Assembly (NCBI GenBank): GCA_002238905.1
Contig: MPNG01000001.1
Coordinates: forward strand, 12,599-76,598
Direction: 5' to 3'
Length of the DNA stretch: 64,000 nt
Origin: Alphaproteobacteria bacterium bin98
GTDB lineage: Bacteria; Pseudomonadota; Alphaproteobacteria; Bin98
The translations under genes were made by a program, and so were the position numbers. This document shows, in pieces, positions 1,196 through 54,856 of this stretch; positions within the stretch are counted from its first letter, which is position 1; the number at the start of each line of letters is the position of its first letter. The notes below the pieces were generated by a model. That model was given only the letters and a program-made list of their open reading frames with translations. It did no database searches and had not been told where the DNA came from.

Positions 1196-1774
1196 TCAAG
1201 TCTGATTTAGAGATTGGAGCTCTGAATGATAAATGATCTTCTTGGTTTCATCAAGAGCCGCCTGTAACTGATCCACTCCGTCCCAAAGCTCACTGTTCGC
1301 ACAAAAATCTTCTAAAGATGATAATACGTTTCGGTATGCCTTACGGTATCCATATCGTAGCAATAATTTATGTACTACATCTCTATCCTGAACTAAAGAG
1401 AACAAGCAGTGTGAATGGCATAATGCATCAAAATAAAACAAGAAGGTTTCTAAATTGGCCCCACCCTCTTTTTTATTCAGAATATATTCTTGATCTGCAA
1501 TTATCTGGATAGAAGTCAGGTGATGATGTTTCTCTAAGGTTTTTCCAATATCATCCTGTACTCCTCGCGCAAAGGTAGCTAATTCATCACACTTCATACT
1601 CGCATAATTACTATTCCTGAGGGTATCTAGCAGATTTTTTTTGTGCGTCTCCAACAATTCTTGATCGTTTTCCCAACCTTTCAGAGCAAAAGATGGGCTG
1701 GGGTAGTCCTCATAGATCTTTTCTGCGCCACAAGCCTGCAAACAGGTTAAAAATAATAATACTAATAACATCAA
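1196..1774 (-). CDS. secreted FC-family protein (paralog of 22496..23095)
   Basis: Signal peptide MMLLVLLFLTCLQACGA. Contains KHHHLTS and LSSLEDFCANSE. About 50% identical to 22496..23095, and the two share upstream DNA. Confidence 0.65.
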   Translation of the reverse strand: MMLLVLLFLTCLQACGAEKIYEDYPSPSFALKGWENDQELLETHKKNLLDTLRNSNYASMKCDELATFARGVQDDIGKTLEKHHHLTSIQIIADQEYILNKKEGGANLETFLFYFDALCHSHCLFSLVQDRDVVHKLLLRYGYRKAYRNVLSSLEDFCANSELWDGVDQLQAALDETKKIIYHSELQSLNQT

Positions 1775-2605: not shown

Positions 2606-3355
2606 TCAATCTATCTCCTCCATGTAATGAAATGTCAGAATAAATTTTCTCAAGCGTTCAGAAGCCCAAATTTGTCTCCCCATACAGAAGCCTTCTAAAG
2701 ATGATAATAAGTATAGACATGCAGCATTGTATTGTGTCTCTAATGCTATTCTGCGAGGAGATACTTGGTATTTACGAAATAATTGCTTATATTCTGAATC
2801 TCTTTCAAATTCAGAAAAAAGATAAAAGAAGAGTTCTAGATCAAGTTGTTGGGCAAATCGCAGCTGTATGAAAGTCTTAAGATCATCTGGCTCAATCAAA
2901 GGGTTGCGTGAGGATATTCTTGTAGCAGTAAGAGCTAGTATCTTTTCAGAAGTCAGTTGATGATGTTCGGTCAAAGACTGTTCCATAACAGCCTTTACTT
3001 GTTTTGAAAAATTATGTAACAAGGTAAATCGCAAAGAAGAATAATGTTCCCGCGACAAGGCGTTTTGTAAGGTGGATGCCAAAATTTCTTTTTGTGTCTC
3101 TAATAACTTTTGATCTCCCCACTCTTTTAGCGATGGGTCAGCATGCCTGCGACGCAAACACTTAGATAGTCGAGAAATAGAATTAGAAAAACAGTGCAGT
3201 AGTGTGCCCCAACAGCTATTATCACTCCAGTTATTATAACTTATGCAGAGTGTCTGTATGGGGGGGGATTTTTTGTCCTTACACCGATCATCGGCGTTTT
3301 CTAAAGCTCCATGGAGATGAAAGCAGAGCAAAAATAATAATATATATGTCATCAA
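2606..3355 (-). CDS. secreted FC-family protein, subfamily A (HHxLTSxxILxLTAT)
   Basis: Signal peptide MMTYILLFLLCFHLHGA. Motifs HHQLTSEKILALTATRI, LDLELFFYLFSEFER and LLSSLEGFC. Paralog of 13441..14433. Confidence 0.65.
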   Translation of the reverse strand: MMTYILLFLLCFHLHGALENADDRCKDKKSPPIQTLCISYNNWSDNSCWGTLLHCFSNSISRLSKCLRRRHADPSLKEWGDQKLLETQKEILASTLQNALSREHYSSLRFTLLHNFSKQVKAVMEQSLTEHHQLTSEKILALTATRISSRNPLIEPDDLKTFIQLRFAQQLDLELFFYLFSEFERDSEYKQLFRKYQVSPRRIALETQYNAACLYLLSSLEGFCMGRQIWASERLRKFILTFHYMEEID

Positions 3356-3530
3356 TACACCTTATTTGTCAATACTAGATTACACGAGAATGAAATTAAA
3401 ACAAAGATCTCACTTACTCGCACTAAACAAAATCAATGCACCAAATGCTTTTTAAAAAGTTGATGTTTTTAGCAAAACAATCATTATTTAAAGCAATGAA
3501 GATAAATGTGAAGGTGAGACATTCAGAGGT

Positions 3531-3566
3531 GCCCCCTTAACCACTCACCTCTGAATATTCTTGCAA
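3531..3566 (-). terminator. 11-bp-stem hairpin downstream of 3596 gene; possible intrinsic terminator
   Basis: attcagaggtg / cacctctgaat perfect inverted repeat with a 14-nt loop, 30 nt past the stop of the minus-strand gene. An identical copy lies at 4617..4652. Confidence 0.35.
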
Positions 3567-3595
3567 ACTGTCGTAAAGCCTCTCCAATTTTGAAC

Positions 3596-4201
3596 TCAAT
3601 CCTTTTCTGTGAGACCGGTTAGGGAACGCCAGGCTTTATAACAAGCAATAGCTTCCTTCTGGCGCTCACAGAAATGCAAACAAGATAATAGAAGAGACTT
3701 ATAAGCTTTTACATATTTTGCCAACACAAGATCTGGATTATCCTGATTACAGCCATCGGTTACAGTAAGCATACAGCTTTGTCCAGTATAAGACAGAGCA
3801 TGCATGAAGGTTTCTGGAGTAAGATGGAAGCAAGGACTTAGCATATTGCTAGCTTGCTCTTTCATTTTGTCCTCACTTATGTCAGGATGTTTTTCGGTGA
3901 AATACTCTAAAAGTATATCCCGCAGTCCGTCTGCAAAAGCTTTTACTTCCTTAATGTTTTCCATTTGACAAATTGCTTGCGTCCGCAAGTGATCCGACAC
4001 ACGTTTTCTCCAAGGATTTTTGAAAGCAGTTTGACCTACGTCCCACCAAGAACACTGTAGAGTTAGTTCTAGAGGTGACATCGCACGCAGTTGATCTATT
4101 CTTGTGATCATATATTGTTCTAACGGACTATATTCACTCACACCCTCATCAGCTCCAGACACGTGCAAACAAATCAAAAATAATAGTGGTATGAATTTCA
4201 T
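3596..4201 (-). CDS. secreted FC-family protein, subfamily B (tandem paralog of 4689..5288)
   Basis: ORF runs to 4234, but the family signal peptide starts at MKFIPLLFLICLHVSGA (4201). GAGGA RBS upstream. Motifs KHPDIS and LLLSCLHFC. Confidence 0.65.
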   Translation of the reverse strand: MKFIPLLFLICLHVSGADEGVSEYSPLEQYMITRIDQLRAMSPLELTLQCSWWDVGQTAFKNPWRKRVSDHLRTQAICQMENIKEVKAFADGLRDILLEYFTEKHPDISEDKMKEQASNMLSPCFHLTPETFMHALSYTGQSCMLTVTDGCNQDNPDLVLAKYVKAYKSLLLSCLHFCERQKEAIACYKAWRSLTGLTEKD

Positions 4202-4247
4202 AGTTTTTTCCTCATAGTCAATATAAATATGCATTGTATATCGTATA

Positions 4248-4451
4248 TCATTTCAGCCGTGAAAGCAAATTTAAAACTATAATATTGCATTTCATGAATA
4301 TCTCCAATCTAGCGGAGTGCGTATAAAATGCTATAAATTTAGTGCGCCAAGATCCCACTTGTTTTACCAAAATCATGCACCTATCATCGGTGTTTTCTAA
4401 AGCTCGATGGAGATGAAAAAAGAGCAAAGATGATAATATATATGTCATCAA
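4248..4451 (-). pseudogene. truncated N-terminal duplicate of subfamily A gene (copy of 2606..3355 start)
   Basis: The first 25 codons and upstream DNA are near-identical to 2606..3355, followed by a deletion and divergence. Part of the 1.1-kb tandem duplication unit. Confidence 0.5.
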
Positions 4452-4616
4452 TACACCTTGTTTGTCGATACTATATTACACGCAAATGAAATTAAAACAA
4501 GGATCTCACTTACTCGCACTAAACAAAATCAATGCACCAAATGCTTTTTAAAAAGTTGATGTTTTTAGCAAAACAATCATTATTTAAAGCAATGAAGATA
4601 AATGGGAAGGTGAGAC

Positions 4617-4652
4617 ATTCAGAGGTGCCCCCTTAACCACTCACCTCTGAAT
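4617..4652 (-). terminator. duplicate copy of hairpin 3531..3566
   Basis: Identical inverted repeat within the duplicated intergenic segment. Confidence 0.3.
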
Positions 4653-4688
4653 ATTCTTGCAAACTGTCGTGCCTCTCCAATTTTGAAA

Positions 4689-5288
4689 TCAATCCTTTTC
4701 TGTGGGAACGATTAGGCGATGCCAGGTTTGATAATAAGAAATAGCTACCTTATTACCATCACAGAAATTTAAACAAGATAGTAGAAGATTCTTATAAGCT
4801 TGTACATATTTTGCGTTCACAGCATCTGGATTCCCCTGATTACGGATATCGCTTATATCCAGCAGATATCTTTCTTCAGAAAAACACAAAGCTTGCATGA
4901 AGATTTCTGGACTAAGATGGAAGCGAGGACTTAGCATATTGATCGCTTGCTCTTTCACTCTGGAATAACTTATGTCAGGATGCTTTTCTGTCTGATACTC
5001 TAAAAGTATCGTCAGCAATGGGTCTGCAAAACCTTTTAATTCCTTAATGTTTTCCATTTGACTAATTGCTTGCGTCTGCAAGTGATCCGACACACGTTTT
5101 CTCCAGGGATTTTTGAAATTAGCTTGATTTAGTCTCCAACAAGAACACTGTAGAGCTTGTTCTAGAGGTGGTAGCTGACGCACTGCATCTAATCTTAGGC
5201 ATAATTCTTTTAACGCACTCTGACAACACGCATCCTCATCAGATCCATACACGTGCAAACAAAGGAAAAATAGTAGTATGAATTTCAT
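4689..5288 (-). CDS. secreted FC-family protein, subfamily B
   Basis: Signal peptide MKFILLFFLCLHVYGS. Motifs KHPDIS and LLLSCLNFC. About 60% identical to 3596..4201. Confidence 0.65.
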   Translation of the reverse strand: MKFILLFFLCLHVYGSDEDACCQSALKELCLRLDAVRQLPPLEQALQCSCWRLNQANFKNPWRKRVSDHLQTQAISQMENIKELKGFADPLLTILLEYQTEKHPDISYSRVKEQAINMLSPRFHLSPEIFMQALCFSEERYLLDISDIRNQGNPDAVNAKYVQAYKNLLLSCLNFCDGNKVAISYYQTWHRLIVPTEKD

Positions 5289-5690
5289 AGTTTTTATCCA
5301 TAATCAATATACAAGTGAGTACTTAGGATCATTATATATCATTTATTTGTTTCAACAATGATTGAGATTGCATGAATTTGACACAATACAGAAAAATCTT
5401 TCAATTTCTATGTACCAAATGGTTTTTAAGAGGAAGGTAGAGCACGAAAAAGCATGGTTCTGTATGGATAGATTTGGCTTAATAGAATATCAACTTATTG
5501 CCCAACTGCTTTAAGCAATAAAGGTTACTCTCTTTGTATTTTCAAATCAACTGAATCAAGATAAACGTCGACGATCAGTAGTCTTTTGAGCAAGTGGATC
5601 AATTTTTGCAGGTTTTGCCTCAATCCAGATTATTTCTCTTGGATACCCAAGGAATATTCTATCAAGTGAAAAAAAATCAAAAGTGTCTCT

Positions 5691-6398
5691 CTACGAATGA
5701 GCTCTCTTAACACGCTTTGCTACCGATCTTTCAACGTTAACTTCAATAATGTCAAGGATCTCTTCCTGCCATAAAGAATAGTGTACATCAGATCGTACTA
5801 AGAAGTTGTCACAAAAACCATCGAAAGAGCTTAGGAGGTGATAATACATTCTTTGACATTTTTGATCATCACTTGAAACATCAGATGCTGAGAATGCATA
5901 TTCTCGTTCCAATAAAGCAAAAGAATGATAGTAAAGCGTTAGATCAAGATGGAAGTTTTTCTTTTCCATCTCAGGCACCTGCTTTGCCACCAACCCATCA
6001 GATATGATGGGATGCTTTTTTGTATAAACTTTCACAAGAACCTTGAGTACTAATTGTGCGATAGGCTTGAGTTCAAATAGTTTTGACGCCTCAGACAAAT
6101 TTATTTTCTTCATAATATTTTGAAACGCTGTTCTGAGTGTCGTATCCAAACAGCCTTCAGAGTAGAATGGCTCCAGAGGAGCATCACACACCATTCTGAT
6201 TCTTTCATCCAAAGAGTTTTGAGCTACATCCCACAAAGTGGCCTGCGTAGCTTTTTCCCCAAATGTCAGGGATGCACAACAGAAAGAAAGTCTTTTCTTT
6301 TTTGCCTCTTCTATAGCTATAGCAGAAAGGCACTCTGCGCTATAGCTAGCCTGTAAACAAGTTAAGGTTGAAAATAATAATATTAATCGCAATTTCAT
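5691..6398 (-). CDS. secreted FC-family protein, subfamily C (paralog of 27992..28684)
   Basis: Signal peptide MKLRLILLFSTLTCLQAS. Motifs KKHPIIS and LLSSFDGFC. Upstream DNA is also shared with the 27992 copy. Confidence 0.65.
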   Translation of the reverse strand: MKLRLILLFSTLTCLQASYSAECLSAIAIEEAKKKRLSFCCASLTFGEKATQATLWDVAQNSLDERIRMVCDAPLEPFYSEGCLDTTLRTAFQNIMKKINLSEASKLFELKPIAQLVLKVLVKVYTKKHPIISDGLVAKQVPEMEKKNFHLDLTLYYHSFALLEREYAFSASDVSSDDQKCQRMYYHLLSSFDGFCDNFLVRSDVHYSLWQEEILDIIEVNVERSVAKRVKRAHS

Positions 6399-6479
6399 AC
6401 ACTTATTATTTATTTTTTTTTTTTTGATGTCAATTCATAGACTCGTATTTTGCAAGCGATCATCATCCCAATAGAGCAG

Positions 6480-6760
6480 TGTAGATAAAACATTGCAGAA
6501 TTCCGGCAATCACCAGCACTCTTAAAAGACTCACAACTCAAAGAAGAGAGTTGGCATACAACGCAAGCACATATTGCTCAAAGCGTTGCGGTGGCAAAGA
6601 CATCCAAAGGACTAGCTGCTTTTGCTGGTTGAAGTTTGTTTTTTTCAGCAATTCTTTTTACGCTTTGACCTAAAAAAAGAATGGCGACAAGGATTTTTAG
6701 GGGAAGGTAGTGAATCTAGCGTTCAAATATTTAGATTTTTTCACTACCTTACACACATAG
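6480..6760 (+). pseudogene. mosaic of gene fragments
   Basis: 6521..6585 matches codons of 14690-type genes (14851..14915). 6579..6700 is about 95% identical to 32470..32590, the antisense 3-prime end of the NhaC-like gene. 6705..6755 matches 19045..19110. No open frame. Confidence 0.5.
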
Positions 6761-6840
6761 GATTGCAAGATTAAGCAAAAAACTCTAGAACAATTAAGTA
6801 TTGATCTGACATACACATAATTTTACAAAAAACAATCATT

Positions 6841-7407
6841 ATGATACAATTTTGTAATATGTTAATATTATTATTTTTCACTTGTTTACACACTTATGGA
6901 TCTTATGCTCCAGTGGCCACTGAAAAGCATCTTTGGCAACACAGTCAGGAAATATTTAAGCCGTATCGTGATGCCACTCTAGCGGCACTCCAACGCTCTC
7001 CATATACTTTGCGCACCTTAGAGTTAGTAGAAATGGAGTTTGGGGATGCCTATCCAAAATTTATGCTTAACGGTTGGAATATGACTGCATTTTCAAAGGA
7101 AGCTTTTGCTCATCAAGGCGTGTATCCCCAATTAAGATATATTCAAGATAATCCAGAAGATCCAAATTTTAATCTTGATATCCCTACCCTCTCTAAGGCT
7201 TTGACGATGGCCTCTGAGCATAACTCACTCCTTCAACTTCCACACTACACCCCCTTATTAGAAGTCGCTCTGCATGGACAGTATAGCCTCTTGTTATCTT
7301 GCAAAGCTTTCTGTGAAAACCGTCCAGGGGAGGCTTTCTCAGAGTATGAGAAATATTGGCACAATACTGCTTATACAAGCGTTTCAAAAAAAAAGAAATC
7401 GTCCTAG
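6841..7407 (+). CDS. secreted FC-family protein, subfamily D (paralog of 19192..19725)
   Basis: Signal peptide MLILLFFTCLHTYGS. Motif LLLSCKAFCEN. A degraded third copy lies at 17398..17890. Confidence 0.65.
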   Translation: MIQFCNMLILLFFTCLHTYGSYAPVATEKHLWQHSQEIFKPYRDATLAALQRSPYTLRTLELVEMEFGDAYPKFMLNGWNMTAFSKEAFAHQGVYPQLRYIQDNPEDPNFNLDIPTLSKALTMASEHNSLLQLPHYTPLLEVALHGQYSLLLSCKAFCENRPGEAFSEYEKYWHNTAYTSVSKKKKSS

Positions 7408-7584
7408 AAAATATTGAGGAGACGAAAAAGTCGCCAGAATCATCAAGAGTAGCGTTGGCAGAAGACTTAAAAAAGATTTCAACATCACTTTTTTCTCTTT
7501 TTGCAGAATCCCATCCCTCTTACAATGATCGCTTACGTCTTTCAGCGCTTTTCGCATATCTTCATATAAATAAGAAACACTGGA

Positions 7585-9765
7585 CTAGGCATGCAGTCGC
7601 GGCTCAATTTCCATTGCTTTGCGCCTCACTTCTTCTATTGCTTTGCGCCTCACTTCTCCTATTGATTGGCGCCTTTCGCGCCTCACTCCCCTTTCTTTTT
7701 GAATCATTTCTTCCATTTCTTTTTGAATTATTTTTTCCATTGCTTTAGCTCGAACGACTCTTATTTCTTTCATTTCTTTTTTCATATCTCGAGCAAGAAG
7801 AAACAGTGGACGGTTCTCCACAAAGGGTAAGAAATGGTCTATGTCTTCACCTCTTATATTTCTTAAAGTTTTTTTAGATTTACATAAATTGAGTATATAA
7901 TTATGGCTACGATTTGCATCTGTAAGAATCTCTCTCACAGTTTTTGCCCTGACCTCTTTTGCAGGCCACCTGACCTTGGGGGTGAAATCAGCTACAGGTA
8001 GTGCAAAAAGGTCTTGAAAGTCCAAAAATAATAGATAACCTTTTCTTAATATTGAATTTCTATAGTGTGAGTGTTCTGGACACGCCAAGGCACGCTCCAC
8101 AAGAGGCCTCGCTCTTTTTCTAAAAGGTTCTATTCTTTCCTCCATTTCTGAAGAAACGGAAGATGGTAAACACATTATGCGAGTCAAACTATCAATATCC
8201 AAACAAGGGTCCAAAAACGCTAGCGGTATTCCAGACATGATACACACGGCCTCTGCCTCATAATCCTGCTCATCAATGTACAACTTAAACATCTGTTTTT
8301 CAGAAATAGCGTCTGTATTATACAGAACACGGATACTCCTTAATTTTTCTTTTAAATTTTCCCCACTCCATTCATCACAGCAAAGACCAGAATGCATATC
8401 ATATAAGATTTTTGCATAAACAACTAATTGCATATTTAAAGCTTTATTCTCCCCTTCCCCTTGCATTAATGAGATACATTCTTTTTCCAAAACAGCCGAA
8501 GAAGGCAATCCTTGAGCCCTTTGTTTTCTTTGATTATAAGTATATACCATGATACCTAGAAGATCCTTTCTTGTTGAAAGTTTTTTCATACAGTCTTTTT
8601 GGAGCGGCCAATCCACAAAATTTAATGGAGAGAGTTTACCTTCATATTCTTTTATAAATAGATCCTTTACACGGAGCTTTATTTTTGCAAGAGCATCTTG
8701 CACATTTGGATCTTCTTCACATTTTCTCAAGTATGCAAAACCTCTCTTCTGGATGTCTGCCCCTTCTCTGAGAAACAATTCATAATTTGTATCTATGCAG
8801 CGATCTTTAGAAAATGATATTTTAGCTGCCATCGAACACACAACACTTGCATCTATAAAACCATCCACAGGAACCTTGAGGTGTAAGTGTTCGAGCGGAT
8901 GATCCATAAAACCTTCCATACATTCACTAACATAGTGCAAACCCTGTTCATGCAACATCCAAAAAAGAATATCTTTAATATGTTCAAAACAACCTCCATC
9001 TTTTTTCAGCCTTAAAGCTTCATTCCATAGTGGTCGAAATTCCTCCAAAGCTATAGCAAAAAATTTTGCAAAAGGCCCTTTTGTTATAGCATCTTGCTCC
9101 AACTGATGCAGAGCCATATCATGATGCAGAATCACAGATCCAAGGCCTTCATAAGCATCATGTACTACCACAGGAGTATTCAAATCTTTTGGTACACTCA
9201 AAAGATATTTATATTTATCGCAAAGCATTAATGTCAGAAAATCTTCCTCCGAGAATCCACCATTCTCAGTCATAACAAACACAAACTCTCTTTCTGCGAC
9301 TCTCCTCAAGCCTTCTAACTCTGCTTCATCTACAATAATTCTCAGCGCCATACAGTCACGGTAGTGTAAAGAAAGTGTAAACCTCAAAAAATCTTTAGGT
9401 ATTTTCCGCAATGATCGAGTGAAAAGTTCTTGTATACTAGCGTGGTAAACGCTACCTAATCCACAGTTCAATTCAAATGCATAGGGACTCTTCTTATATA
9501 AATCAGATTCAAGCATATCCGCTATTTTTGACATAGGGATGAATCTTTTTTCCAGTTCATTCATCGCTTCCACAAGGAAAGGTAATTTTTTCCTCTGAGC
9601 TACACTCCATTGTGGCCAGATAGCCTCACAGGATGATTCTTGGCTTGAAATTGCGCCATGCGCGCAGCAAAAAGTAAATAATAATATAAGTATCATATTC
9701 TTGTTGAAGAGTAGCATATTTGCATTACAAATGAAAATCCCAGTGTCTGCAATTATTGAGAACAA
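7585..9765 (-). CDS. large secreted protein with family-type signal peptide and repetitive basic/acidic C-terminal tail
   Basis: 726-aa ORF. A family-type signal peptide MILILLFTFCCAHGA sits 23 codons in, so the likely start is 9696. Duplicated GLGSV segments. C-terminal EVRRKA/EMEEMIQKE repeats are encoded by DNA tandem repeats at 7600..7750. Confidence 0.6.
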   Translation of the reverse strand: MFSIIADTGIFICNANMLLFNKNMILILLFTFCCAHGAISSQESSCEAIWPQWSVAQRKKLPFLVEAMNELEKRFIPMSKIADMLESDLYKKSPYAFELNCGLGSVYHASIQELFTRSLRKIPKDFLRFTLSLHYRDCMALRIIVDEAELEGLRRVAEREFVFVMTENGGFSEEDFLTLMLCDKYKYLLSVPKDLNTPVVVHDAYEGLGSVILHHDMALHQLEQDAITKGPFAKFFAIALEEFRPLWNEALRLKKDGGCFEHIKDILFWMLHEQGLHYVSECMEGFMDHPLEHLHLKVPVDGFIDASVVCSMAAKISFSKDRCIDTNYELFLREGADIQKRGFAYLRKCEEDPNVQDALAKIKLRVKDLFIKEYEGKLSPLNFVDWPLQKDCMKKLSTRKDLLGIMVYTYNQRKQRAQGLPSSAVLEKECISLMQGEGENKALNMQLVVYAKILYDMHSGLCCDEWSGENLKEKLRSIRVLYNTDAISEKQMFKLYIDEQDYEAEAVCIMSGIPLAFLDPCLDIDSLTRIMCLPSSVSSEMEERIEPFRKRARPLVERALACPEHSHYRNSILRKGYLLFLDFQDLFALPVADFTPKVRWPAKEVRAKTVREILTDANRSHNYILNLCKSKKTLRNIRGEDIDHFLPFVENRPLFLLARDMKKEMKEIRVVRAKAMEKIIQKEMEEMIQKERGVRRERRQSIGEVRRKAIEEVRRKAMEIEPRLHA

Positions 9766-9882
9766 ACAAGAGCTATTAAATGGATTTTTTGGATTAGTCT
9801 TCGTTTTTATTCAGCATGAAGTCAACATGCTTAAATGCAGGATCTACTCGGCAGAATGATACTGCAAGCGGAATAGTGTAAG

Positions 9883-11094: not shown

Positions 11095-11377
11095 AAAATG
11101 ATACATTGAAAAGAACCTCCTTTGTCAAAAGCAAGCATTATCTCAGCATATGCAAGACAAAAGATTATGTAGGGTTGATCTTAATCTTCAAACGATACGT
11201 GCAAATTTTACAAATTATCATAACATTACAATATATTACAATTTGCGATCAAACTATATTATTGCAAAAAGATTTTGTGCTAGCGAGATATAAGGATCGC
11301 TATATTAATCTTGCATTTCTGAGCCTCAAAATGTACAATGGGGCAGTAATCTAATCACAATTGAATCAGGATACCCT

Positions 11378-12193
11378 ATGCATTTTATATTATTATACTT
11401 AATCGCTACATACACATATAGCGCGCAAGCACCAGAGATAGATCCGGCCAACGCAACCCAATGGTTGAGGACGAAGGCCGGGCAAAGTAAACTATCTACT
11501 TTACAACAGAGGTTGAAGTGTTCCGGAGAAGGATGGTCCAGCACTGGCCAATGGTTGAGAACGAAGGCCGGGCAAAATATCCTATCTGATTTAAACAACG
11601 CGTTAAGATCAGATATTGGTTATGATTGTTTCACTTTAAGTCAAGTAGCGGATGAGATAACTAGGATGATGCGCTTAGACGATTACCATAAGAAATCAGC
11701 TAATCTGAAACAGGCTTACAAAAGATCACGAGACTCTTACTCAACACACTGCTATACAGAATCCTATCAAAGTGCTCGTCAAGCACAAAAGGACATCGAT
11801 AGCTCAAAGGCCACACTTGCCAAGACGCATCAAGAGTACATACCGCCTAGCTTGGAAGCTAAGGTTGCCGATCCCGATAGTGAATTCCATAAGATGAGTA
11901 TAGAGCTCCTCAATGCGCTTTTAAAGGACGCAAATGCAGAGGCAGACAATCCAAAACTGTACACCGATCAGCTCAGTCCTATGGGTATTGAACCCCTATC
12001 TGATTTTCCAGTTTTAGCGATACATAGAGATCTTTTAGAGACTATTAGGTATCTCTGTGAACAACAACAACATATGGCTGAAACCAGCTATCGTAATTGG
12101 TATAAGGAAAGAACATCAGATGAACAGATGGCGTTTCGTAGCTCATTATCACATCCGGCTGAACGCGCGAAACTTCTGTGCCCCATAAATTAA
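11378..12193 (+). CDS. secreted family protein with internal QWLRTKAGQ repeat
   Basis: Signal-peptide-like N-terminus MHFILLYLIATYTYSAQA. Internal duplicated segment. Its 3-prime module is shared with fragments at 829..1040 and 15482..15870. Confidence 0.6.
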   Translation: MHFILLYLIATYTYSAQAPEIDPANATQWLRTKAGQSKLSTLQQRLKCSGEGWSSTGQWLRTKAGQNILSDLNNALRSDIGYDCFTLSQVADEITRMMRLDDYHKKSANLKQAYKRSRDSYSTHCYTESYQSARQAQKDIDSSKATLAKTHQEYIPPSLEAKVADPDSEFHKMSIELLNALLKDANAEADNPKLYTDQLSPMGIEPLSDFPVLAIHRDLLETIRYLCEQQQHMAETSYRNWYKERTSDEQMAFRSSLSHPAERAKLLCPIN

Positions 12194-12205
12194 AAAATCC
12201 AAATA

Positions 12206-14689: not shown

Positions 14690-15463
14690 ATGACATCAAT
14701 AATATTGTTATTTTTAATGTCTTTTTCACAGGCAGATGCGGCTATGCCCGAAACTCTTACTGATGGAATGCAAAAAATGTGCTTACATGATTATGGAGCT
14801 GTTCAGCAGAGCGACTATGCAGAATTTCGGAAAGCAGTACTCTTAAAAGACTCAAAACTCAAAGAAGACAGTTGGCATACAGCTCAAGCATATATTGCTC
14901 AACATCTCAGTGAAATTCGCGAGTTCATCGATGTAGAACCTTCGGAGTATAATTATCACACTCTATTAACATTACGGGATATTTTTTCTGATTTCAGCCC
15001 ATATGTTAATGAAATCCAAAAGCAGCACCAAACTTCCGAAAATCTGCTGACATCCATGATGAACAGCCAGCATATCTCTCACAAAAGATCTATGGAAAGT
15101 ATGTGTCAAAGGGGTGAAGCATCTCTATTGCATATATTTCCAGCGGAGATTTCGGAGGAAGAGTGGATGATTGTTTTAAATCCTAAACTGGAAGGCTTTA
15201 TTCTTGATGCAGCCACCATATATACACTTTTAATAGAAGCGATAGAAGAGATAGATGCACTAACAGAGAATAGGTTGTTTAAGATCTTTGAAACCAAATT
15301 AGATCAATGCAGAAATACCAATATCTATGTACATCTCGTAAAAGTTTGCAAACATCTCTGTGACAACCAACCACAGATGTGCTACGAGGCATATGATCAC
15401 TTTTATCTTCTTAAAGAACAACAGAAAGACTGGCTGCGAGAGCCAGTCTTTAGCATAATCTAG
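14690..15463 (+). CDS. secreted family protein, subfamily F (VKVCKHLCDNQ; paralog of 31501..32073)
   Basis: Signal peptide MTSIILLFLMSFSQADA. The C-terminal 60 aa are about 70% identical to 31501..32073. Confidence 0.65.
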   Translation: MTSIILLFLMSFSQADAAMPETLTDGMQKMCLHDYGAVQQSDYAEFRKAVLLKDSKLKEDSWHTAQAYIAQHLSEIREFIDVEPSEYNYHTLLTLRDIFSDFSPYVNEIQKQHQTSENLLTSMMNSQHISHKRSMESMCQRGEASLLHIFPAEISEEEWMIVLNPKLEGFILDAATIYTLLIEAIEEIDALTENRLFKIFETKLDQCRNTNIYVHLVKVCKHLCDNQPQMCYEAYDHFYLLKEQQKDWLREPVFSII

Positions 15464-15481
15464 ATTTGATTATGCTAAAGT

Positions 15482-18277: not shown

Positions 18278-18844
18278 TTATTGATTGACAACAACTAATG
18301 TAGCGTAGAACTTATCATATCTTGTATTAAACTTATCTTGGAGTCCATTACAGAGAGCTTCTAGACTTAAGAAGAGTTGTCTCAACGTCTCTTGGTATCT
18401 CTGTACTTCTCGATGATCTAAAGAACAGGGACTTAATCTTTTAGAAAATGTAGACAATTCTTGCCTATTCTCTTTGAGTACTGGAGGATTTTTTTTCAAC
18501 AAGGTATGCATCTTTGCTTCCGCCACAACACTCAGGACATTACATCCATAATCAATGAGATCAGACAATGAGAGGGGATGCTCCGTTTGTATCAAGAAAG
18601 TGTCAATCGCAGTTAAGATCTTGTGTTTGTACGGAAAAATGGCTTCTTGCGCTACCTTCCAATGTTGTGATTTTGCAACAATCCCACCTTTTTTGCTATG
18701 TTCTAGAAAATGAGATTCCCATATTTCGACAGCTGCCTTCACCAGCTGTGCACCCTCTTCTTCCATGCCAGGCACTGATTTTAAGCTTGAGGTAGTTCCG
18801 TAAGCACATGAAAAAATCAAAAATAATAATATCAAATTCATCAA
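18278..18844 (-). CDS. secreted FC-family protein, subfamily E
   Basis: Signal peptide MMNLILLFLIFSCAYG. Motif LFLSLEALCNGL. Paralog of 12547 and 35077 genes. Confidence 0.65.
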   Translation of the reverse strand: MMNLILLFLIFSCAYGTTSSLKSVPGMEEEGAQLVKAAVEIWESHFLEHSKKGGIVAKSQHWKVAQEAIFPYKHKILTAIDTFLIQTEHPLSLSDLIDYGCNVLSVVAEAKMHTLLKKNPPVLKENRQELSTFSKRLSPCSLDHREVQRYQETLRQLFLSLEALCNGLQDKFNTRYDKFYATLVVVNQ

Positions 18845-19191
18845 TATCTCCTTATCTACAATTTTACCTTATATCATCTCACAATTTAACTATGATTCGC
18901 ACTGTTATTGGGCAGAATTCTCATAGCCTGAGATCAGAATAAGTGGCCAAATTGCGTTACTCTCAGAAAAGTATATGAAACAGAGAAAAAAGCGGAGGAA
19001 GAAAAAAATAAGCCAATCCGAATGATGCATCCGTAATCAGGTTAGGCGTAGTGAATATAGCGTTCAAATCTTTAGACTTTATCGTCAAAATTTTTCACCA
19101 TCCTCTGAGCTCAGATAGAAATGGTCAGTTTTACTCACTGAAACCTACTGTCATCATCCCATTTATCACAATATCATCATATGGCTTATAA

Positions 19192-19725
19192 TCATTGCTT
19201 ATAAGCCAAAAAAATATCATGAACAGATGGTGATATGTGAGCATACCAGTCTTTATATACTCTGTAAGCGAGATCCTGGTTGTTTTCACAGAAAGCTTTG
19301 CAAGCGTATAAGAGATTATTGTGTAGGATCAAACGATGGAGGCTTGACAATTGGACCCAAACTTCAATGCGGTGGGAAAAAACCTGACGATTGCGCAGAT
19401 CTCCACGTATTGCTGCATTGAGAGCTTTAGCGAGGATAGGTACATCAAGTGTAAATTGTGGACATTGAGGATCCTCTTCACTTTCATTAATTATTGCTAT
19501 TGCACTTGATCGGCCATGGATGATATCAGCAAGATCAAGAAACAGATTTTCTGTTCTGATTAAATCGCAAACGGTATATGAAGGTTTGTTCAATATGGGC
19601 TTGAGCAGCTCTTGTTTCAGGATTTCTTCAGTATATCCAGCGGAGGGGCTTAGCAAAGCTCCATAAAATGGTGAACTCACAAATAACAGTAAAATTAATA
19701 TCATAAATCTATCCTTATTTACCAT
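19192..19725 (-). CDS. secreted FC-family protein, subfamily D
   Basis: Signal peptide MILILLLFVSSPFYGA. Motif LLYACKAFCENN. Confidence 0.65.
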   Translation of the reverse strand: MVNKDRFMILILLLFVSSPFYGALLSPSAGYTEEILKQELLKPILNKPSYTVCDLIRTENLFLDLADIIHGRSSAIAIINESEEDPQCPQFTLDVPILAKALNAAIRGDLRNRQVFSHRIEVWVQLSSLHRLILHNNLLYACKAFCENNQDLAYRVYKDWYAHISPSVHDIFLAYKQ

Positions 19726-31500: not shown

Positions 31501-32073
31501 ATGGTATTAATTTTATTTTTTTTAATCTTCTTGCATGCTTATGGAGCTGTTCAGCAGCGCGACGATGCAGAATTTCAAAAATCAGCAGTATTCTTAACAG
31601 ACTCAACAATCAACAAGGATCGCTTCAGACAGGACAGTTGGGACACAACTCAAGAACAGATTGCTCAAAAGCGCAGTGAAATGCGCATGTACTTCGATGG
31701 ACACTCTTCTTATGAGTATGATTATTACACTTTAACAGGATTAGAGTATCTTTTTATTGATTTCAAAGGACCATGCAATCTGTGGAAATCTAGCACAAGC
31801 ACAACATTGATGACTGTATTCAATCCTAAACTAGAAAGCTTTATGCTTAATACAGAGACCATAGCTCACCTTTTGACAAGCGCCAAGGAGGAGGTGGAAA
31901 AACTAATTGAGGAAGGATTAAAGATCAACAGAAAATTCAATCGACACATAGGTACCAAGCCCTATGTACATCTCCTGAAAGTTTGCAAACATCTTTGTGA
32001 CAACCAACAAAAGATGTGCTACGACGAGTATGAGCATTTTTATCTTCTTAGGGAACAACAGAAAGGAAGATAA
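31501..32073 (+). CDS. secreted family protein, subfamily F
   Basis: Signal peptide MVLILFFLIFLHAYGA. C-terminal VKVCKHLCDNQQKMCYDEYEHFYLLREQQ. Confidence 0.65.
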   Translation: MVLILFFLIFLHAYGAVQQRDDAEFQKSAVFLTDSTINKDRFRQDSWDTTQEQIAQKRSEMRMYFDGHSSYEYDYYTLTGLEYLFIDFKGPCNLWKSSTSTTLMTVFNPKLESFMLNTETIAHLLTSAKEEVEKLIEEGLKINRKFNRHIGTKPYVHLLKVCKHLCDNQQKMCYDEYEHFYLLREQQKGR

Positions 32074-32345: not shown

Positions 32346-33620
32346 TTATTTTCTTTGTAAAAATAGTGCGCCTATTACATAAAGAGCAAGAGGGTAAAAG
32401 CAAAACGGCATAATATTAATGGGTGACTGGGAAACAATGGACGATGCCAGCAAGATTTGTGCTCCGTGAGGAATAATACACTGCGTTGCGGTGGCAAAGA
32501 CATCCAAAGTACTAGCTGCTTTTGCTGCTTGAAGTTTGTTTTTTTCAGCAATTCTTTTTACGCTTTGACCTGAAAAAAGAATGGCTATAGTGTTATTGGC
32601 AAAAATAATATCTGATATTATCGATATTTTGGCAATAAACCATGAGGCACGATAAGGATTTTTATATGATTTTTCAAGAATCTCCAAACCTTTATGTCGC
32701 ACAATAAACGCTTGTATACCTCCTAAGAAAAAGGAAAGGATGGCCACTTCCTTCATGGAAAAGATGCCTTCTTTAAATTGTTCTGCAAATGTTGTCGCAC
32801 TGTAATCAGAGAAGGAAATCCCTAGCAAAGCTGCAAAAAGTATAGATCCAAACAAAGAAAGTGTGACAGGTATACCCGCAAGCGCCAGTCCTGTGACCAT
32901 AACATAAGGAAGAAGTTTCCACCAAGAGATATCAGCTGCAATGTTTTCATTTCCTAGTATTGGTGTAGCGCCAAAGGCTGAAAAAATGCCATATAAAACA
33001 ATCACACTGATACACGCTATAAGCGCAGTTGGAGCGTTTGCTATAAGTTTTTCCTTTGGCGTTACACCTACAGTTTGTGATGCTGCAATGGAGGTGTCAG
33101 AAACAAGGGATAAGTTATCACCAAACGCCGACCCACTCACCACAGCTCCAATAAGCCATAACGCTGCTAATGAATCGCCATGCGCCAATTCAACAGCAAA
33201 AGGCCCCACAACTCCAATAACACCCATAGAAGTTCCCAAAGCCATGGATATTAAGCAAGAAACAAAAAATATACCTGGCAATATTGCTCCAGATGGAAGA
33301 AATTCTTGTGTAATAAGCACGGCTTCTTGGACACTTCCAATGCCTTTGCTAACTTCGGAAAATGCACCGGCCAAAAAAAATATGAAGAGCATGGCCGCAA
33401 TGCCTTCATTTGCAAAACCTTTGCATAAATTATCGACCCTTTTTTTTAAAGAACCAGAGTCTAAAAGAACCGACAAAAAAAGTGCTGGCATAATACAGAC
33501 AACCGCTGAAACCTTGTAAAAAGCAAAATCAGCACCTTGGAGTGTAAAGTAAATCCCGCAACCTAAAAAAAGCAGGACAAATAATAAAATGGGGCTTAAC
33601 GATCTATATAACATGATCAT
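32346..33620 (-). CDS. NhaC-like / ion-transporter-superfamily polytopic membrane permease
   Basis: 424 aa with about 11 hydrophobic segments. GDNLSLVSDTS-type motifs are typical of the IT superfamily (NhaC-like). Its 3-prime 120 bp are duplicated at 6579..6700. Confidence 0.5.
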   Translation of the reverse strand: MIMLYRSLSPILLFVLLFLGCGIYFTLQGADFAFYKVSAVVCIMPALFLSVLLDSGSLKKRVDNLCKGFANEGIAAMLFIFFLAGAFSEVSKGIGSVQEAVLITQEFLPSGAILPGIFFVSCLISMALGTSMGVIGVVGPFAVELAHGDSLAALWLIGAVVSGSAFGDNLSLVSDTSIAASQTVGVTPKEKLIANAPTALIACISVIVLYGIFSAFGATPILGNENIAADISWWKLLPYVMVTGLALAGIPVTLSLFGSILFAALLGISFSDYSATTFAEQFKEGIFSMKEVAILSFFLGGIQAFIVRHKGLEILEKSYKNPYRASWFIAKISIISDIIFANNTIAILFSGQSVKRIAEKNKLQAAKAASTLDVFATATQCIIPHGAQILLASSIVSQSPINIMPFCFYPLALYVIGALFLQRK

Positions 33621-34136: not shown

Positions 34137-34847
34137 CTACACCACCCATTGAAAAATCTTCTGGCATTCCTTTGTAAGGAAGAACATCTTTAAGGAGACG
34201 AGATGTCGATTGCCCATACATATAGCCTCGAAAACACCTAACAGATTTATGTATCCTGCTTTAACACGCGCATTTAGACATGCTGCGGAAACGGATTTAG
34301 GCCGTGATAAGGTTTGTGCGTCAGAAAGGAGCAACCAGCGACGAGCTAAAATGTTCAGCAAGCTATTCTCTATGGTTTCAGTCATAATAGGTTCATCCTT
34401 TATTCTGGTTAGAGTCTTTATTATGCTTACAGTAATATTAGGTTCACCCTGCTTTAGTATGGTTAGAGTCTTTATTATGCTTACAGTAATATTAGGTTCA
34501 TTCTTTATTTTTGCAAAATCATACGCGCACACAACTTTTGAAAAAACATTATCGCACAAAATAGTCATGATTGGTTTTATATAAATCTCTTCTAAGTCAT
34601 CAAGATTACATGTCTCTTGATAAGCCAAGCTTATATATTTACCTGTATCAGGTGCAGATGCACTATAGCAGCGATCGTCGCGAACAGTGTCGAGAACAGC
34701 TCGAATCTTACCTCTAGATGAATCCATGAGTGTTTGAGTGTTTGTCCACTCTTCATCAGAAATTGCGACAGAAGCGCCATGAGCGTATGAAATGAAAAAT
34801 AATAATATAAATAGCATAATTGTTACCCATGATATTATGCCTGACAA
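34137..34847 (-). CDS. secreted protein with 19-aa tandem repeat (EPNITVSIIKTLT)
   Basis: Signal peptide MLFILLFFISYAHGA is internal to the ORF start. 57-bp direct repeat at 34381..34494. C-terminal YINLLGVFEAICMGN is FC-like. Confidence 0.55.
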   Translation of the reverse strand: MSGIISWVTIMLFILLFFISYAHGASVAISDEEWTNTQTLMDSSRGKIRAVLDTVRDDRCYSASAPDTGKYISLAYQETCNLDDLEEIYIKPIMTILCDNVFSKVVCAYDFAKIKNEPNITVSIIKTLTILKQGEPNITVSIIKTLTRIKDEPIMTETIENSLLNILARRWLLLSDAQTLSRPKSVSAACLNARVKAGYINLLGVFEAICMGNRHLVSLKMFFLTKECQKIFQWVV

Positions 34848-35076: not shown

Positions 35077-35577
35077 TTATTTCGGCAAGTAACAAGGCGT
35101 CTCTATTAGGCGCACATAAGTATACACACTATGAAGAAGTTGCTTGTACCATGTCATGCTTTGATCAAAATCTGTTAGAGGTCCTTCTTTTCCTTTACAG
35201 ACAATTTTTAAAGAGAGAAAGAGTCGCTTCAATGCCTTTTGGACTTCCCTTGCTGTCTGAAACAGTTTTTCCGCTCCTAAAGTATCAGCTGTTCGTTTTT
35301 TGAAAGTCGCAATCGCATCTAAAATCGTGTCTTTGTACGGCTCAATACGTTCTTGAGCTACCTGCCAATTTTGTAATTGTTCCAAAGATCTTGTCTCCGA
35401 CTGAGCACTCCTTGGGGGCAAGACAACTTTTGTTGGATCCATCCCCCTCTCTGAGATCTGGGCATTAGCCTTAGCTAAGATCTCCTCTAAGTGATTTTGC
35501 AAATCTTGTCCTCCCTCTGCTCCGTGCAGTTGCTCCATGAACGCAGGAAAAATGAACAATAATAAGACAAAGTTCAT
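35077..35577 (-). CDS. secreted FC-family protein, subfamily E
   Basis: N-terminus MNFVLLLFIFPAFMEQLHGA. Motifs YKDTILDAIATFKK and LFLSLKIVCKG. Confidence 0.6.
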   Translation of the reverse strand: MNFVLLLFIFPAFMEQLHGAEGGQDLQNHLEEILAKANAQISERGMDPTKVVLPPRSAQSETRSLEQLQNWQVAQERIEPYKDTILDAIATFKKRTADTLGAEKLFQTAREVQKALKRLFLSLKIVCKGKEGPLTDFDQSMTWYKQLLHSVYTYVRLIETPCYLPK

Positions 35578-46638: not shown

Positions 46639-47415
46639 TCAGTACGGCGCTCTCTCCTTCACAGCAGCACAAACATTAGGTCCATTGAGGTATGTAAGAC
46701 GCCAAATATTATATTTTCGTTCAGCTTTTTCATGATTCCCCACACAGTAAGCTTCCATAGCTGATAAGAGGTCATGATACTGCTGGATGAGCATTTCTGG
46801 CGGAGACAAAGATTTCTTAGATTTTGGCCGCTCGTACAGACAGTAATTTTGAAAAGATAATAAGAGGTCGCGACACTCCGGCGTGTACACTGACTCTGAC
46901 GGAGACAAATATTGCAGAGATAATTTTTTATATCTTTGCGCTGATAATACTGACGTAACCTGGCCTCTCAACATTGCAAAAGCACAGAAGAATTTGAATA
47001 CATCAAGCTCAAAGTACTCATCTGTGACATTGATAACAACAGCCTTCATATCAGGACGAGTGATTAAATCAGTCTGCTGGTTTTGCTTCAGAAGCTCTTC
47101 TAATTCCACTGAAAATGCCATTAATTCTTCAAGATCGACCATCTCAATCCACTTCTGAGAATCGAGTATTTTTTTACAAGCTTCCCCGCAATTCCCAAAA
47201 TGTTCTTGATTTTTTATCCTGTTGAGCTCCCGCACACCTTGCCTTTCTCCTGACAGATGGTTGATTTCATTTATTCTTTGCGCATCAGCAAACTCCTCCA
47301 GAATGGTGGTGGGGGGCTCTGCTCCATGCGCCAGTGAATAGATTAAAAATAATAAGATTAATGTCATGAATAAACCTCTAATACAAAGTTTATATCCTAT
47401 TCTCAGCTTTATCAA
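46639..47415 (-). CDS. secreted FC-family protein, subfamily H (recent tandem duplicate)
   Basis: Near-identical to 45322..46098, including flanks 46060..46140 = 47377..47460. Confidence 0.65.
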   Translation of the reverse strand: MIKLRIGYKLCIRGLFMTLILLFLIYSLAHGAEPPTTILEEFADAQRINEINHLSGERQGVRELNRIKNQEHFGNCGEACKKILDSQKWIEMVDLEELMAFSVELEELLKQNQQTDLITRPDMKAVVINVTDEYFELDVFKFFCAFAMLRGQVTSVLSAQRYKKLSLQYLSPSESVYTPECRDLLLSFQNYCLYERPKSKKSLSPPEMLIQQYHDLLSAMEAYCVGNHEKAERKYNIWRLTYLNGPNVCAAVKERAPY

Positions 47416-53648: not shown

Positions 53649-53650
53649 AT

Positions 53651-54856
53651 ATGATGTCTGTAAGCTTAGCGATGTGGCGCAATTGGTCATTTATCACACT
53701 GTTTTATGCCTACCAATATATAGTGCGCGTATTACCCAATATTATCTACAAACCTATTGTAGAAACCTTTGGCATTAATGCTACTATTTTTGGACAATTT
53801 TCAGGCATTTATTATATAGGATACGCATTAGCACACATACCTGTAAGCCTATTGTTTGATCGATTTGGATTGAAAAAAGTTCTACCACTAACGCTTTTAT
53901 TAATGGTGGGAGGGCTTTTGCCTATTATTTATACAGAATCATGGATTTACCCTGTATTTGGAAGATTTTTAACCGGCATTGGCTCTGCCTCCGTAACGCT
54001 GGCGGCTTTTCACATTATTCGTGTAGGATTTCCCGTGGCAAAACATCCTATGATGCTAAGTTTAACAATAGCATTGGGATTGGTTGGGGCTGTTTATGGA
54101 GGAAGGCCTACAGCTTACCTTTGCGACCAACTTGGACATGTAGCCGTTATTCAGATTTTGGTTGCGGTAGGCAGTATTATTTCTGTAATTTCTTATATTT
54201 CACTTCCTAAGGAAAAAAATCGTTTAAAAGATGTGCAAATTTTGAAAGGCCTTAAGCATGTTTTTTGTAACAAAAACACCATGTGGATGTCTCTTACAGC
54301 GGGTTTAATGATTGGATCACTTGAAGGTTTTCCAGATGCTTGGGGCGTTATGTTTTTTACAAAAGTATACGGACTTCAGTTTGATTACTCCGCCCAATTA
54401 ACCTCTCTTATATTTTTAGGTTTAGGAGTTGGCGGCCCATTGGTTAGCTACGCAGCAGAAAAAACTGGAAAAGCCCTTTGGTTTATTATCATCGCAGGCA
54501 TTTGTATGGCTGTTCCCTTTTTATTCTTTTTGGGAATGCAGCTTTCTGACACAATGCTGATCGTTTCATTGATTACTATTGGAGTGGGATGCTCTTATCA
54601 AATGCTCTCTATTTACCATGCCTCTTACTTTGTGGAAAAAAAATATGCCACTATTTCTACAGCAGTGGTGAATATGATTTTGATGGGGTTTGGACATTTA
54701 CTACACAGCGCAATTGGATGCACCGTCAATATTTCAGGCGGATTGGATAATGTGCAAGCCTTGAAAAATGGCCTTTATGTTGTTCCATTAGCCAGCCTTT
54801 TGGGTGCTATTATTTTAATTATTCGCAGAAAATATTTTCAAAACCTCAAATCCTGA
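53651..54856 (+). CDS. MFS transporter (paralog 3 of 3)
   Basis: 401 aa. Starts 2 nt after the previous stop. Its 3-prime 215 bp are duplicated at 57165..57379. Confidence 0.8.
   Translation: MMSVSLAMWRNWSFITLFYAYQYIVRVLPNIIYKPIVETFGINATIFGQFSGIYYIGYALAHIPVSLLFDRFGLKKVLPLTLLLMVGGLLPIIYTESWIYPVFGRFLTGIGSASVTLAAFHIIRVGFPVAKHPMMLSLTIALGLVGAVYGGRPTAYLCDQLGHVAVIQILVAVGSIISVISYISLPKEKNRLKDVQILKGLKHVFCNKNTMWMSLTAGLMIGSLEGFPDAWGVMFFTKVYGLQFDYSAQLTSLIFLGLGVGGPLVSYAAEKTGKALWFIIIAGICMAVPFLFFLGMQLSDTMLIVSLITIGVGCSYQMLSIYHASYFVEKKYATISTAVVNMILMGFGHLLHSAIGCTVNISGGLDNVQALKNGLYVVPLASLLGAIILIIRRKYFQNLKS

Follow-up and report, generated by a model that had tools for sequence, protein, structure and literature searches.

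How a fragment of a transporter gene came to be joined to the beginning of an unrelated secreted-protein gene, and whether the joined DNA still does anything, are the questions raised by a 442-bp spacer (positions 6399-6840) in the genome of Alphaproteobacteria bacterium bin98. The spacer belongs to a stretch of 64,000 nucleotides of contig MPNG01000001.1 that was analyzed as a whole and is called the window here. The host is an uncultured alphaproteobacterium represented by a metagenome-assembled genome (MAG). Because no GTDB species representative has a DnaE protein more than 40-50% identical to its own, the lineage is considered deep-branching. A literature search under the assembly and sample accessions found no papers.

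The window has a G+C content of ~37%, and a lineage-specific family dominates it, consisting of small proteins whose N-terminal signal peptide has the form ..ILLFL.CLH.YGA. BLASTP comparisons placed at least 33 window ORFs in one cluster, and Pfam searches with this family gave no matches. A profile built from 23 members retrieved 69 clusters from 1.84 billion representative proteins, 27 of which are encoded in the window. In a self-comparison of the whole window, the family paralogues were 65-93% identical. The spacer lies between two divergently transcribed genes of this family:

5691..6398, minus strand: left flanking family gene from the ORF list, 235 aa, signal peptide MKLRLILLF..., reading away from the spacer.
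6399..6493, no strand: upstream spacer of the left gene, identical in the two alleles described below, with a promoter-like site for the left gene.
6755..6858, plus strand: upstream region of the right gene, with 10/12 matches in the promoter scan.
6859..7407, plus strand: right flanking family gene, 182 aa from the ATG at 6859, with the frame open from 6841.

At the DNA level, the left gene is 77% identical to the paralogue at 27894-28685, and its exact protein was present on 13 contigs. The ATG at 6859 is the start called for the right gene in most assemblies. The promoter-like site of the left gene on the minus strand is near-consensus, with TTGACA at 6433-6428, a 17-nt spacer, and AATAAT at 6410-6405 (11/12 in the promoter scan). 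That of the right gene comprises TTTACA at 6822-6827, a 17-nt spacer, and TG-TACAAT ending at 6850. Contigs of other assemblies covering this region were reached via exact-protein look-ups with the two flanking genes and with a 67-aa protein, P0176, that is introduced below; contigs of assembly GCA_026710745.1 also matched the window.

A preliminary description of this DNA had reported three unrelated homologous pieces juxtaposed in 6480-6760. When positions 6400-6840 were compared with the whole window by blastn with a word size of 7, exactly three pieces gave significant matches, all of them at that place and far above chance, while everything else had E values of at least 0.02. The matches were kept under a proper score threshold (E values of 1e-24, 3e-45, and 9e-8), and the self-comparison of the whole window, which had been suggested as a dot plot, recovered the same pieces. 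Pieces (a) and (b) adjoin without a gap, and the distance between (b) and (c) is 21 nt:

6494..6582, plus strand: piece (a), putative stump of a family gene, called X here, corresponding to codons 23-52 of the ORF in the longer allele; paralogue of 14690..15463 and 31501..32073.
6583..6685, minus strand in the coding sense: piece (b), copy of nhaC codons 346-379 found by blastn, antisense to the family-gene stump.
32483..32585, minus strand: source of piece (b), within the intact nhaC-type gene 32346..33620(-).
6686..6706, no strand: 21-nt stretch between the nhaC piece and motif (c), with no significant match in the window.
6698..6754, no strand: motif (c), mosaic copy delimited by nhmmer, with a perfect 11-bp inverted repeat (6704-6714/6740-6750) and 5 further pairs.
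19038..19112, no strand: motif (c), second copy, located in the spacer that separates two co-oriented family genes, 19192..19725(-) and 18278..18844(-).

Piece (a) (6494-6581) matched 14818-14902, the 5' part of the family gene 14690..15463, with 86.4% identity over 88 nt (E = 1.3e-24), and secondarily 31566-31669 with 69% identity (E = 8.5e-8). In tblastn comparisons, translated 6489-6590 matched residues 42-74 of the product of 14690..15463 (E = 4e-10) and the translated stump matched 31501..32073 (E = 3e-5). The family homology ends at 6582. With codons 23-52 in the window and codons 1-52 in the longer allele, the stump is truncated relative to its paralogues, which are about 190-257 aa long.

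Piece (b) (6583-6685) was 97.1% identical to 32483-32585 (100/103, E = 3e-45), slightly more than the ~95% estimated previously. Copy and source are 25,900 bp apart, in line with the earlier figure of 26 kb, and lie on the same strand as a direct repeat. No other inter-locus repeat in the window is as similar, and of all repeats a perfect 71-nt tandem duplication at 19665-19803 alone exceeds it in identity. In tblastn, 6688-6584 matched residues 345-379 of the NhaC-type protein with an E value of 2e-15. The piece had been described as an antisense NhaC-like 3'-prime fragment. It is indeed antisense, but it does not contain the 3' end of the gene: it covers codons 346-379 of 424 and is thus 3'-proximal yet internal, ending 137 nt before the stop codon. 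A colinear continuation past a 64-bp gap was considered, as 6685-6699 resembles 32650-32664 at 14 of 15 positions, and was rejected since the resemblance was no better than that of shuffled sequences. An exact 43-mer of the piece had no match in the genome and metagenome contig collections searched, neither of which contains the source genome.

The source gene 32346..33620(-) lies tail to tail with the family gene 31501..32073(+). Its product matches Pfam PF03553 (E = 1e-12), has 1255 database homologues, and is identical to the NCBI entry 'MAG: hypothetical protein OXC30_00610 [Alphaproteobacteria bacterium]'. Across six loci the source was 99.9-100% identical and carried no polarising information. 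The nearest NhaC relatives are 62-64% identical. At the locus of the relative with 62% identity, rlmH adjoins nhaC with no family genes between them, and different genes follow downstream; this locus gives no help in reconstructing X.

The three mismatches between piece (b) and its source are located at 6610, 6628, and 6672 (G/T, G/C, and A/G on the plus strand), and all three are nonsynonymous in the NhaC frame. In an alignment of the resident NhaC with 16 homologues, the leucine (for serine) and the proline (for threonine) of the fragment occurred in 0 of the 16, so that these two changes must have arisen in the copy. The third change, proline for alanine, is ambiguous in direction, proline being common at this site among NhaC homologues. 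Because the changes are nonsynonymous and at least two of them introduce residues never found in homologues, the piece is neither kept as NhaC coding sequence nor under NhaC constraint. It comprises 34 codons with neither a start nor a stop codon of its own. A member of the NhaC family is recognized by a complete ORF for a multi-helix transporter, and by its length and content the piece is best classed as a fragment.

Piece (c) (6707-6742) matched 19048-19083 at 32 of 36 positions (E = 8.5e-8). It had been called a repeated intergenic motif; the match is real, but an nhmmer search found merely a pair in the window, with envelopes of 6698-6754 and 19038-19112. The RNA of the mosaic copy is predicted to fold with -15.9 kcal/mol (z = -4.3). 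Its hairpin (6704-6750) is followed by ACACACATAGG, and a T-run is absent after it. The copy at 19038-19112 carries a 12-nt insertion and folds no better than its shuffles. With no T-run in one copy and no fold in the other, the motif was rejected as an intrinsic terminator. Co-oriented family genes flank each copy, which follows the upstream gene of the pair; the relative orientation of the two copies is opposite. The right arm of the mosaic copy (6737-6759) is identical at 19 of 23 positions to the signal-peptide codons of the next gene at 6874-6896. On this evidence we regard motif (c) as a probable inter-gene spacer sequence shared by the two loci.

The family-profile search also retrieved the 67-aa protein P0176 (MALILFLLICLHAYGAVQQSGDAEFRKSPALLKDSQLKEESWHTTQAHIAQSVAVAKTSKGLAAFAG), a match to the profile of the family. 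Over residues 23-54, some of which stem from the nhaC piece, it shares 97% identity with the translated window fragment. P0176 is encoded at the same locus in the ENA assemblies ERZ27241796 (L022, a contig of 115,955 bp) and ERZ27241797. L022 and window positions 1-16632 agree to 99.98%, the exceptions in the spacer being a 177-bp indel and a single SNP within the stump. Alignment of L022 9725-10500 with window positions 6330-6900 located the difference:

6493..6494, no strand: deletion junction, from the alignment with L022 and from junction k-mers.
6495..6632, plus strand: remainder of the chimeric ORF (P0176), 45 codons and a TGA (6630-6632), with no start codon in the window.
6507, plus strand: SNP linked to the indel, C (Gln) in the deletion allele and A (Lys) in the long allele.

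An additional 177 bases are present in the long allele at 6493/6494, placed with an ambiguity of 1 nt (T). This segment holds a -10-like TATAGT, which aligns with TATACT upstream of the paralogue 31501, a ribosome-binding site (AAAAGGAG), an ATG, and 22 signal-peptide codons. With this segment, the long allele is homologous to 14690 over 130 nt (87%) and to 31501 over 183 nt (76.5%), the ribosome-binding site included. The 67-aa ORF consists of 52 family-gene codons and 15 codons from the antisense nhaC piece; its product comprises a signal peptide, 36 family residues, and 15 nhaC-antisense residues. Since the long allele still has the ribosome-binding site, the ATG, and the signal peptide, the family piece is apparently the stump of a resident gene and not DNA that moved in. 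An interpretation of 6399-6493 as degenerate signal-peptide DNA, which had given weak alignments (p = 0.006-0.06), was dropped, as the 177 bp missing from the window contain the true signal-peptide DNA.

Junction k-mers assigned the deletion allele to eight samples and the long allele to three. In the third long-allele sample, the contig has a 24-base tail that is foreign to the window and starts exactly at 6494, the start of the 177-bp segment. Both alleles have the family/nhaC junction and the same three mismatches in common, and none of the contigs examined lacks the nhaC piece. L022 and the window differ by three SNPs in 16.6 kb, one of which is that at 6507. The 442-bp spacer thus contains one nonsynonymous SNP and one indel compared with two SNPs in the other 16.2 kb, although these are few events. 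The deletion is a truly recent event that is still polymorphic. In the deletion allele, the window segment lacks a start codon, a ribosome-binding site, and any usable ORF. The earlier interpretation as a mosaic of unrelated pieces is supported.

We consider it quite probable that a resident gene X was truncated by the capture of nhaC DNA, was later beheaded by a deletion, and is debris now. In this course of events, a third family gene on the plus strand, paralogous to 14690..15463 and 31501..32073, would once have resided in the spacer. X would have been broken after codon 52, where a 103-nt copy of nhaC-type gene sequence became attached, and the rest of X would have been lost; the structure of this step can be read from the alleles, whereas its mechanism is proposed. 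The product would have been the 67-aa chimeric ORF that survives in the long allele. The 103-nt copy then accumulated the three substitutions seen in it. Finally, the 177-bp deletion, with a 1-nt overlap at its ends and seen directly between the alleles, removed the -10-like box, ribosome-binding site, ATG, and signal peptide of X and left a remnant that cannot be translated from its own start. At present the segment would be non-functional debris, and the working parts of the spacer are probably only the promoters of the two flanking genes. An intact X-like protein was not found among 5.8 billion database proteins, and the 3' flanks of the paralogues 31501 and 14690 showed no homology to 6686-6840. 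For the right-hand junction (6685/6686), no partner could be identified. The two pieces, a family 5' part and then antisense nhaC, follow each other in the order and orientation found at the 31.5-32.6 kb locus, a one-in-two coincidence under capture.

The junction reads CAAAGCG/TTGCGG (in fuller form ...ATTGCTCAAAGCG/TTGCGGTGG..., with the slash marking the join). At this point the paralogue 31501 reads CAAAAGCG (fuller form ATTGCTCAAAAGCG) and the nhaC locus ACTGCG (fuller form ...ACACTGCG/TTGCGG). The parents share at most GCG (3 nt), the sequence of X itself being deduced from the paralogue. As they share only GCG, the joining would have been at the level of microhomology. This one junction is consistent with microhomology-mediated illegitimate recombination, either by a template switch or by break repair with ectopic filler DNA, and inconsistent with homologous exchange.

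The preliminary description had also called the event recent. Copy and source differ at 3 of 103 positions (95% interval, 0.6-8.3%), and with 97% identity compared with 65-93% the fusion is younger than every family duplication in the window. In this sense the term holds, but not at the level of strains. Because both alleles share the junction and the three mismatches, the fusion predates the split of all sampled strains, and the comparison of 3/103 with 3 SNPs in 16.6 kb of the allele backgrounds indicates that it is much older than this split. Donors were searched for in the window and a few flanking kilobases, and a closer donor for either piece may exist elsewhere.

The alternative that survives best, although we consider it unlikely, is that 31501..32073(+) and the 3' part of nhaC(-) were copied as one block and that an internal deletion of ~813 bp then took the 3' two-thirds of the family gene, the inter-gene spacer, and the last 46 nhaC codons. 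The pieces have the order and orientation found at 31.5-32.6 kb, the sequence AAGCG is present in 31501 exactly at the junction point, and other internally deleted relics as well as a co-duplicated transporter 3' end occur in the window. However, the family part has just 76.5% identity to 31501 (over 183 nt that include a 15-nt indel) and is closer to 14690 (87%), and the values of 97% for the nhaC part and 76.5% for the family part are incompatible with a single date (Fisher p = 1.2e-6). To rescue a block copy, an extra step of gene conversion or recombination that left no remaining trace would be needed. A plain duplication of the neighboring pair 31501..32073/nhaC is ruled out by these unequal identities. 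Of the earlier proposal of illegitimate recombination or duplication, the first part agrees with the 3-nt overlap at the junction, whereas the second, as a plain duplication of the 31501/nhaC pair, has to be abandoned.

A different view concerns not the origin but the role of the fusion. The promoter of X in the long allele could drive the formation of a 67-aa secreted peptide or of an RNA acting in trans as antisense to nhaC mRNA (codons 346-379), and the 177-bp deletion would then be read as a regulatory loss-of-function variant. The long allele does possess the TATAGT box, which aligns with TATACT of 31501, as well as a ribosome-binding site (AAGGAG), an ATG, a typical signal peptide, and a frame open to the TGA. 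If the plus strand of the nhaC piece is transcribed, its complementarity to nhaC mRNA is long and nearly perfect (100/103). In addition, a hairpin is located at the stop codon:

6610..6630, plus strand: weak terminator-like hairpin with a T-run from the terminator scan, inside the nhaC piece and overlapping the stop codon of the chimeric ORF.

This hairpin gains base pairs, and thus stronger pairing, from two of the three substitutions, with a predicted fold of -12.6 kcal/mol compared with -8.2 kcal/mol for the source sequence. It passed a loose scan; with a z value of only -0.4, however, it is no better than shuffled sequences and was rejected as a selected terminator. The whole chimeric transcript showed no unusual structure (z = -0.5), a search of 6200-7000 on both strands gave no Rfam 15 match at E <= 1, and no consensus sigma-70-type promoter passed the scan in the 177-bp segment. 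Furthermore, the start region is gone in most assemblies (eight samples versus three), the sole SNP within the ORF changes an amino acid, homologues or conservation beyond the clonal population were not found, and about ten plainly dead relics are present in the same window. We therefore give this functional interpretation a low probability, and judge an antisense RNA or small-peptide role unlikely from the sequence features at hand. The more specific idea that the long-allele fusion is a young functional gene, for a secreted peptide or for an RNA ending in about 60-100 nt antisense to nhaC mRNA, appears if anything a little less probable. If it were true, the 177-bp deletion would be a natural knock-out segregating in the population, and the locus would present the birth of a regulatory RNA or micro-protein by illegitimate recombination, with both states available for comparison. 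From its decay we infer that the segment is non-functional.

Silent donor cassettes are known from the msp2 pseudogenes of Anaplasma, vls of Borrelia, and pilS of Neisseria. That the fragment is kept in a similar manner, as a template for segmental gene conversion into expressed paralogues, is very improbable. The window does contain a large, fast-diverging secreted-protein family with many partial copies; against this, about 90 nt of family sequence are left, and these come from the conserved N-proximal part and not from the variable core. One flank is foreign nhaC DNA and not a conserved recombination anchor, no paralogue has an identical patch (the best reach 86-87%), and the fragment itself is being deleted. 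A diversity-generating retroelement was likewise rejected, as the mismatches are not confined to adenines, at most one of them involving an A in the intergenic copy; Pfam scans of 19 window ORFs revealed no reverse transcriptase. A MITE or insertion sequence would be expected to show terminal inverted repeats and a target-site duplication, and neither inverted nor direct repeats bracket 6583-6685 or 6494-6685. The repeats found in the spacer scan were the signal-peptide codons of the flanking genes and poly-A/T runs, and the segment contained no tandem repeats.

An assembly artefact, in the form of a chimeric join introduced on a path through repeats, for which eleven contig ends of various assemblies inside the 442-bp spacer and the break of the NCBI MAG (GCA_026710745.1) between 6463 and 6508 might speak, has next to no credibility left and is effectively refuted, since 6399-6840 is found base for base in five assemblies from different samples and pipelines (ENA ERZ27241798 and ERZ27241788; JGI 3300027327, 3300027391, and 3300002151), two more assemblies have the long allele with the same family/nhaC junction, the three differences between copy and source exclude a join through an identical repeat, and the contig breaks are explained by repeats and the allelic indel. 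The break of the NCBI MAG brackets the polymorphic site, which suggests that both alleles were present in the sample.

The presence of both the pre- and the post-deletion allele in public data documents a stepwise gene death in an uncultured, deep-branching alphaproteobacterium, and it adds to the evidence of a quick turnover in an array of at least 33 lineage-specific secreted-protein genes. The indel together with its linked SNP can serve as a strain marker across at least 11 metagenomes. There is also a practical warning in this locus: the contig ends, that of the deposited MAG included, cluster in the spacer because of its repeats and the allelic bubble.

The array itself offers the nearest comparison. 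About ten other intergenic gene relics are present in the window, so that both the capture of fragments and erosion by deletion are routine events in the array. One relic, at 828-1063, is internally deleted. Another, 57160-57656, is a 90% identical copy of 54637-55119, comprising the last 73 codons of an MFS transporter and the downstream spacer, and adjoins a 78% identical copy of a third locus. Both this segmental duplication and the mosaic contain a 3'-proximal transporter fragment as dead DNA in a spacer of the family array. In contrast to the MFS block, in which gene end, spacer, and start of the next gene are colinear and uniformly 90% identical, the pieces of the mosaic are unequal in identity and thus probably did not arrive together.

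Trans-encoded antisense small RNAs resemble the segment in their complementarity to an mRNA made elsewhere, here 100 of 103 positions, and the long allele has a possible promoter upstream as well as a hairpin and T-run inside the piece. Unlike such RNAs, the segment shows no conservation and no Rfam match, and its putative promoter is deleted in most strains.

Template switching and events of the MMBIR/FoSTeS type represent microhomology-mediated illegitimate recombination with insertion of templated or filler DNA. The fusion shares with them the ~3 nt in common at the junction, a co-oriented donor on the same replicon at a distance of tens of kilobases, and the loss of resident DNA. It differs in that only the end product is available and the right junction (6685/6686) is partnerless, so that a one-step event is no more than a possibility.

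The 'junk DNA' of Rickettsia and the pseudogenes of the Sodalis clade are gene remnants under deletional bias. Unlike remnants of this type, which result from simple deletion or frameshift, the truncation described here joined ectopic DNA of an unrelated housekeeping gene to the stump. In host-associated bacteria, deletion-driven decay at short repeats, by slippage deletions, has been documented (Clayton et al. 2016, PMC4948707). In the present case the deletions occurred in AT-rich DNA and not in G+C-rich repeats, and the host is a deep-branching alphaproteobacterium. In other respects the agreement is close: as with the pseudogenes of host-associated bacteria, a truncated copy with intact paralogues lies in a spacer, is eroded stepwise by short deletions with minimal homology, shows no detectable constraint, and varies between near-identical strains. 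The segment is a decaying chimeric pseudogene and as such an instance of a well-known kind of genomic debris.

The small signal-peptide proteins, a family specific to this lineage, form a dense array of at least 33 open reading frames in the 64 kb of the window, which occupies the following stretches and includes, among others, the members listed.
1-47500 and 56092-56886, extent of the family array
1196..1774, 4689..5288, 14690..15463, 31501..32073 and 46639..47415, examples of family members
The family accounted for only 69 clusters (50% identity) in the 1.84 billion representative proteins searched, and a Pfam scan of it gave zero matches. The AlphaFold model of the 4689..5288 product was confident (pLDDT 86) and comprises nine helices; its matches in the PDB were to generic helical bundles only.

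Many family genes carry a TATAAT-like box (GATATA, TATACT, TATAAT) whose end lies 5 to 12 nt 5′ of the ATG, and these same genes are without a Shine-Dalgarno sequence, as in the following examples.
6399-6433 (minus strand), 6822-6858 (plus strand), 1775-1790, 14680-14689 and 26164-26180, upstream regions
The short distance between box and start codon, together with the missing Shine-Dalgarno sequence, suggests that the mRNAs of many family genes are leaderless or near-leaderless. An AAGGAG site is present instead in gene 31501 and in the long-allele ORF, the 67-codon chimera of a family stump and an antisense nhaC piece found in other assemblies.

A translated search with the open reading frames masked detected relics of family genes in several intergenic stretches of the window.
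4377-4451, 12293-12436, 15479-15766, 17411-17807, 22012-22378, 42987-43303 and 44878-45182, family-gene relics
828-1063, relic with matches at 828-876 and 973-1063 to both ends of gene 11378..12193
The pattern of the last relic is as if about 725 internal bases of a gene like 11378..12193 had been deleted. Between positions 6470-6486 and 28686-28702, 15 of 17 nucleotides match, a weak similarity (p ~0.03 against shuffles). This match adjoins the start codon of the paralogue 27992..28684 but lies 71 nt from that of 5691..6398; it faintly hints that the 77% duplication of 5691..6398 took in part of the spacer upstream, with an indel of 70 nt. A perfect 71-nt repeat at 19665-19803 (copies 19665-19735 and 19733-19803, offset 68 nt), the youngest of all repeats in the window, doubles two parts of gene 19192..19725 (minus strand), its ribosome-binding region and its signal-peptide codons.

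Besides the spacer 6399-6840, the window contains another mosaic spacer, 57081-57656, composed of two adjoining copies.
57081-57156, copy of 62577-62653 (78% identity)
57160-57656, copy of 54637-55119 (90% identity)
The source of the second copy comprises the last 73 codons of the MFS gene 53651..54856, the spacer behind it and the 5′ end of the open reading frame that follows; the 1204-aa gene 57609..61223 now begins within the copied segment. At 51241-54856 lie three tandem MFS transporter genes, each encoding 401 aa, with 65 to 71% DNA identity.

In the nearest relative found, a 119,719-bp contig of assembly JGI 3300007060 whose NhaC is 62% identical, rlmH adjoins nhaC (9331-11290), whereas in the window the family genes 34137..34847 and 35077..35577 separate them. 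Judged from this gene order, a conserved rlmH/nhaC neighbourhood has evidently been invaded by the family.
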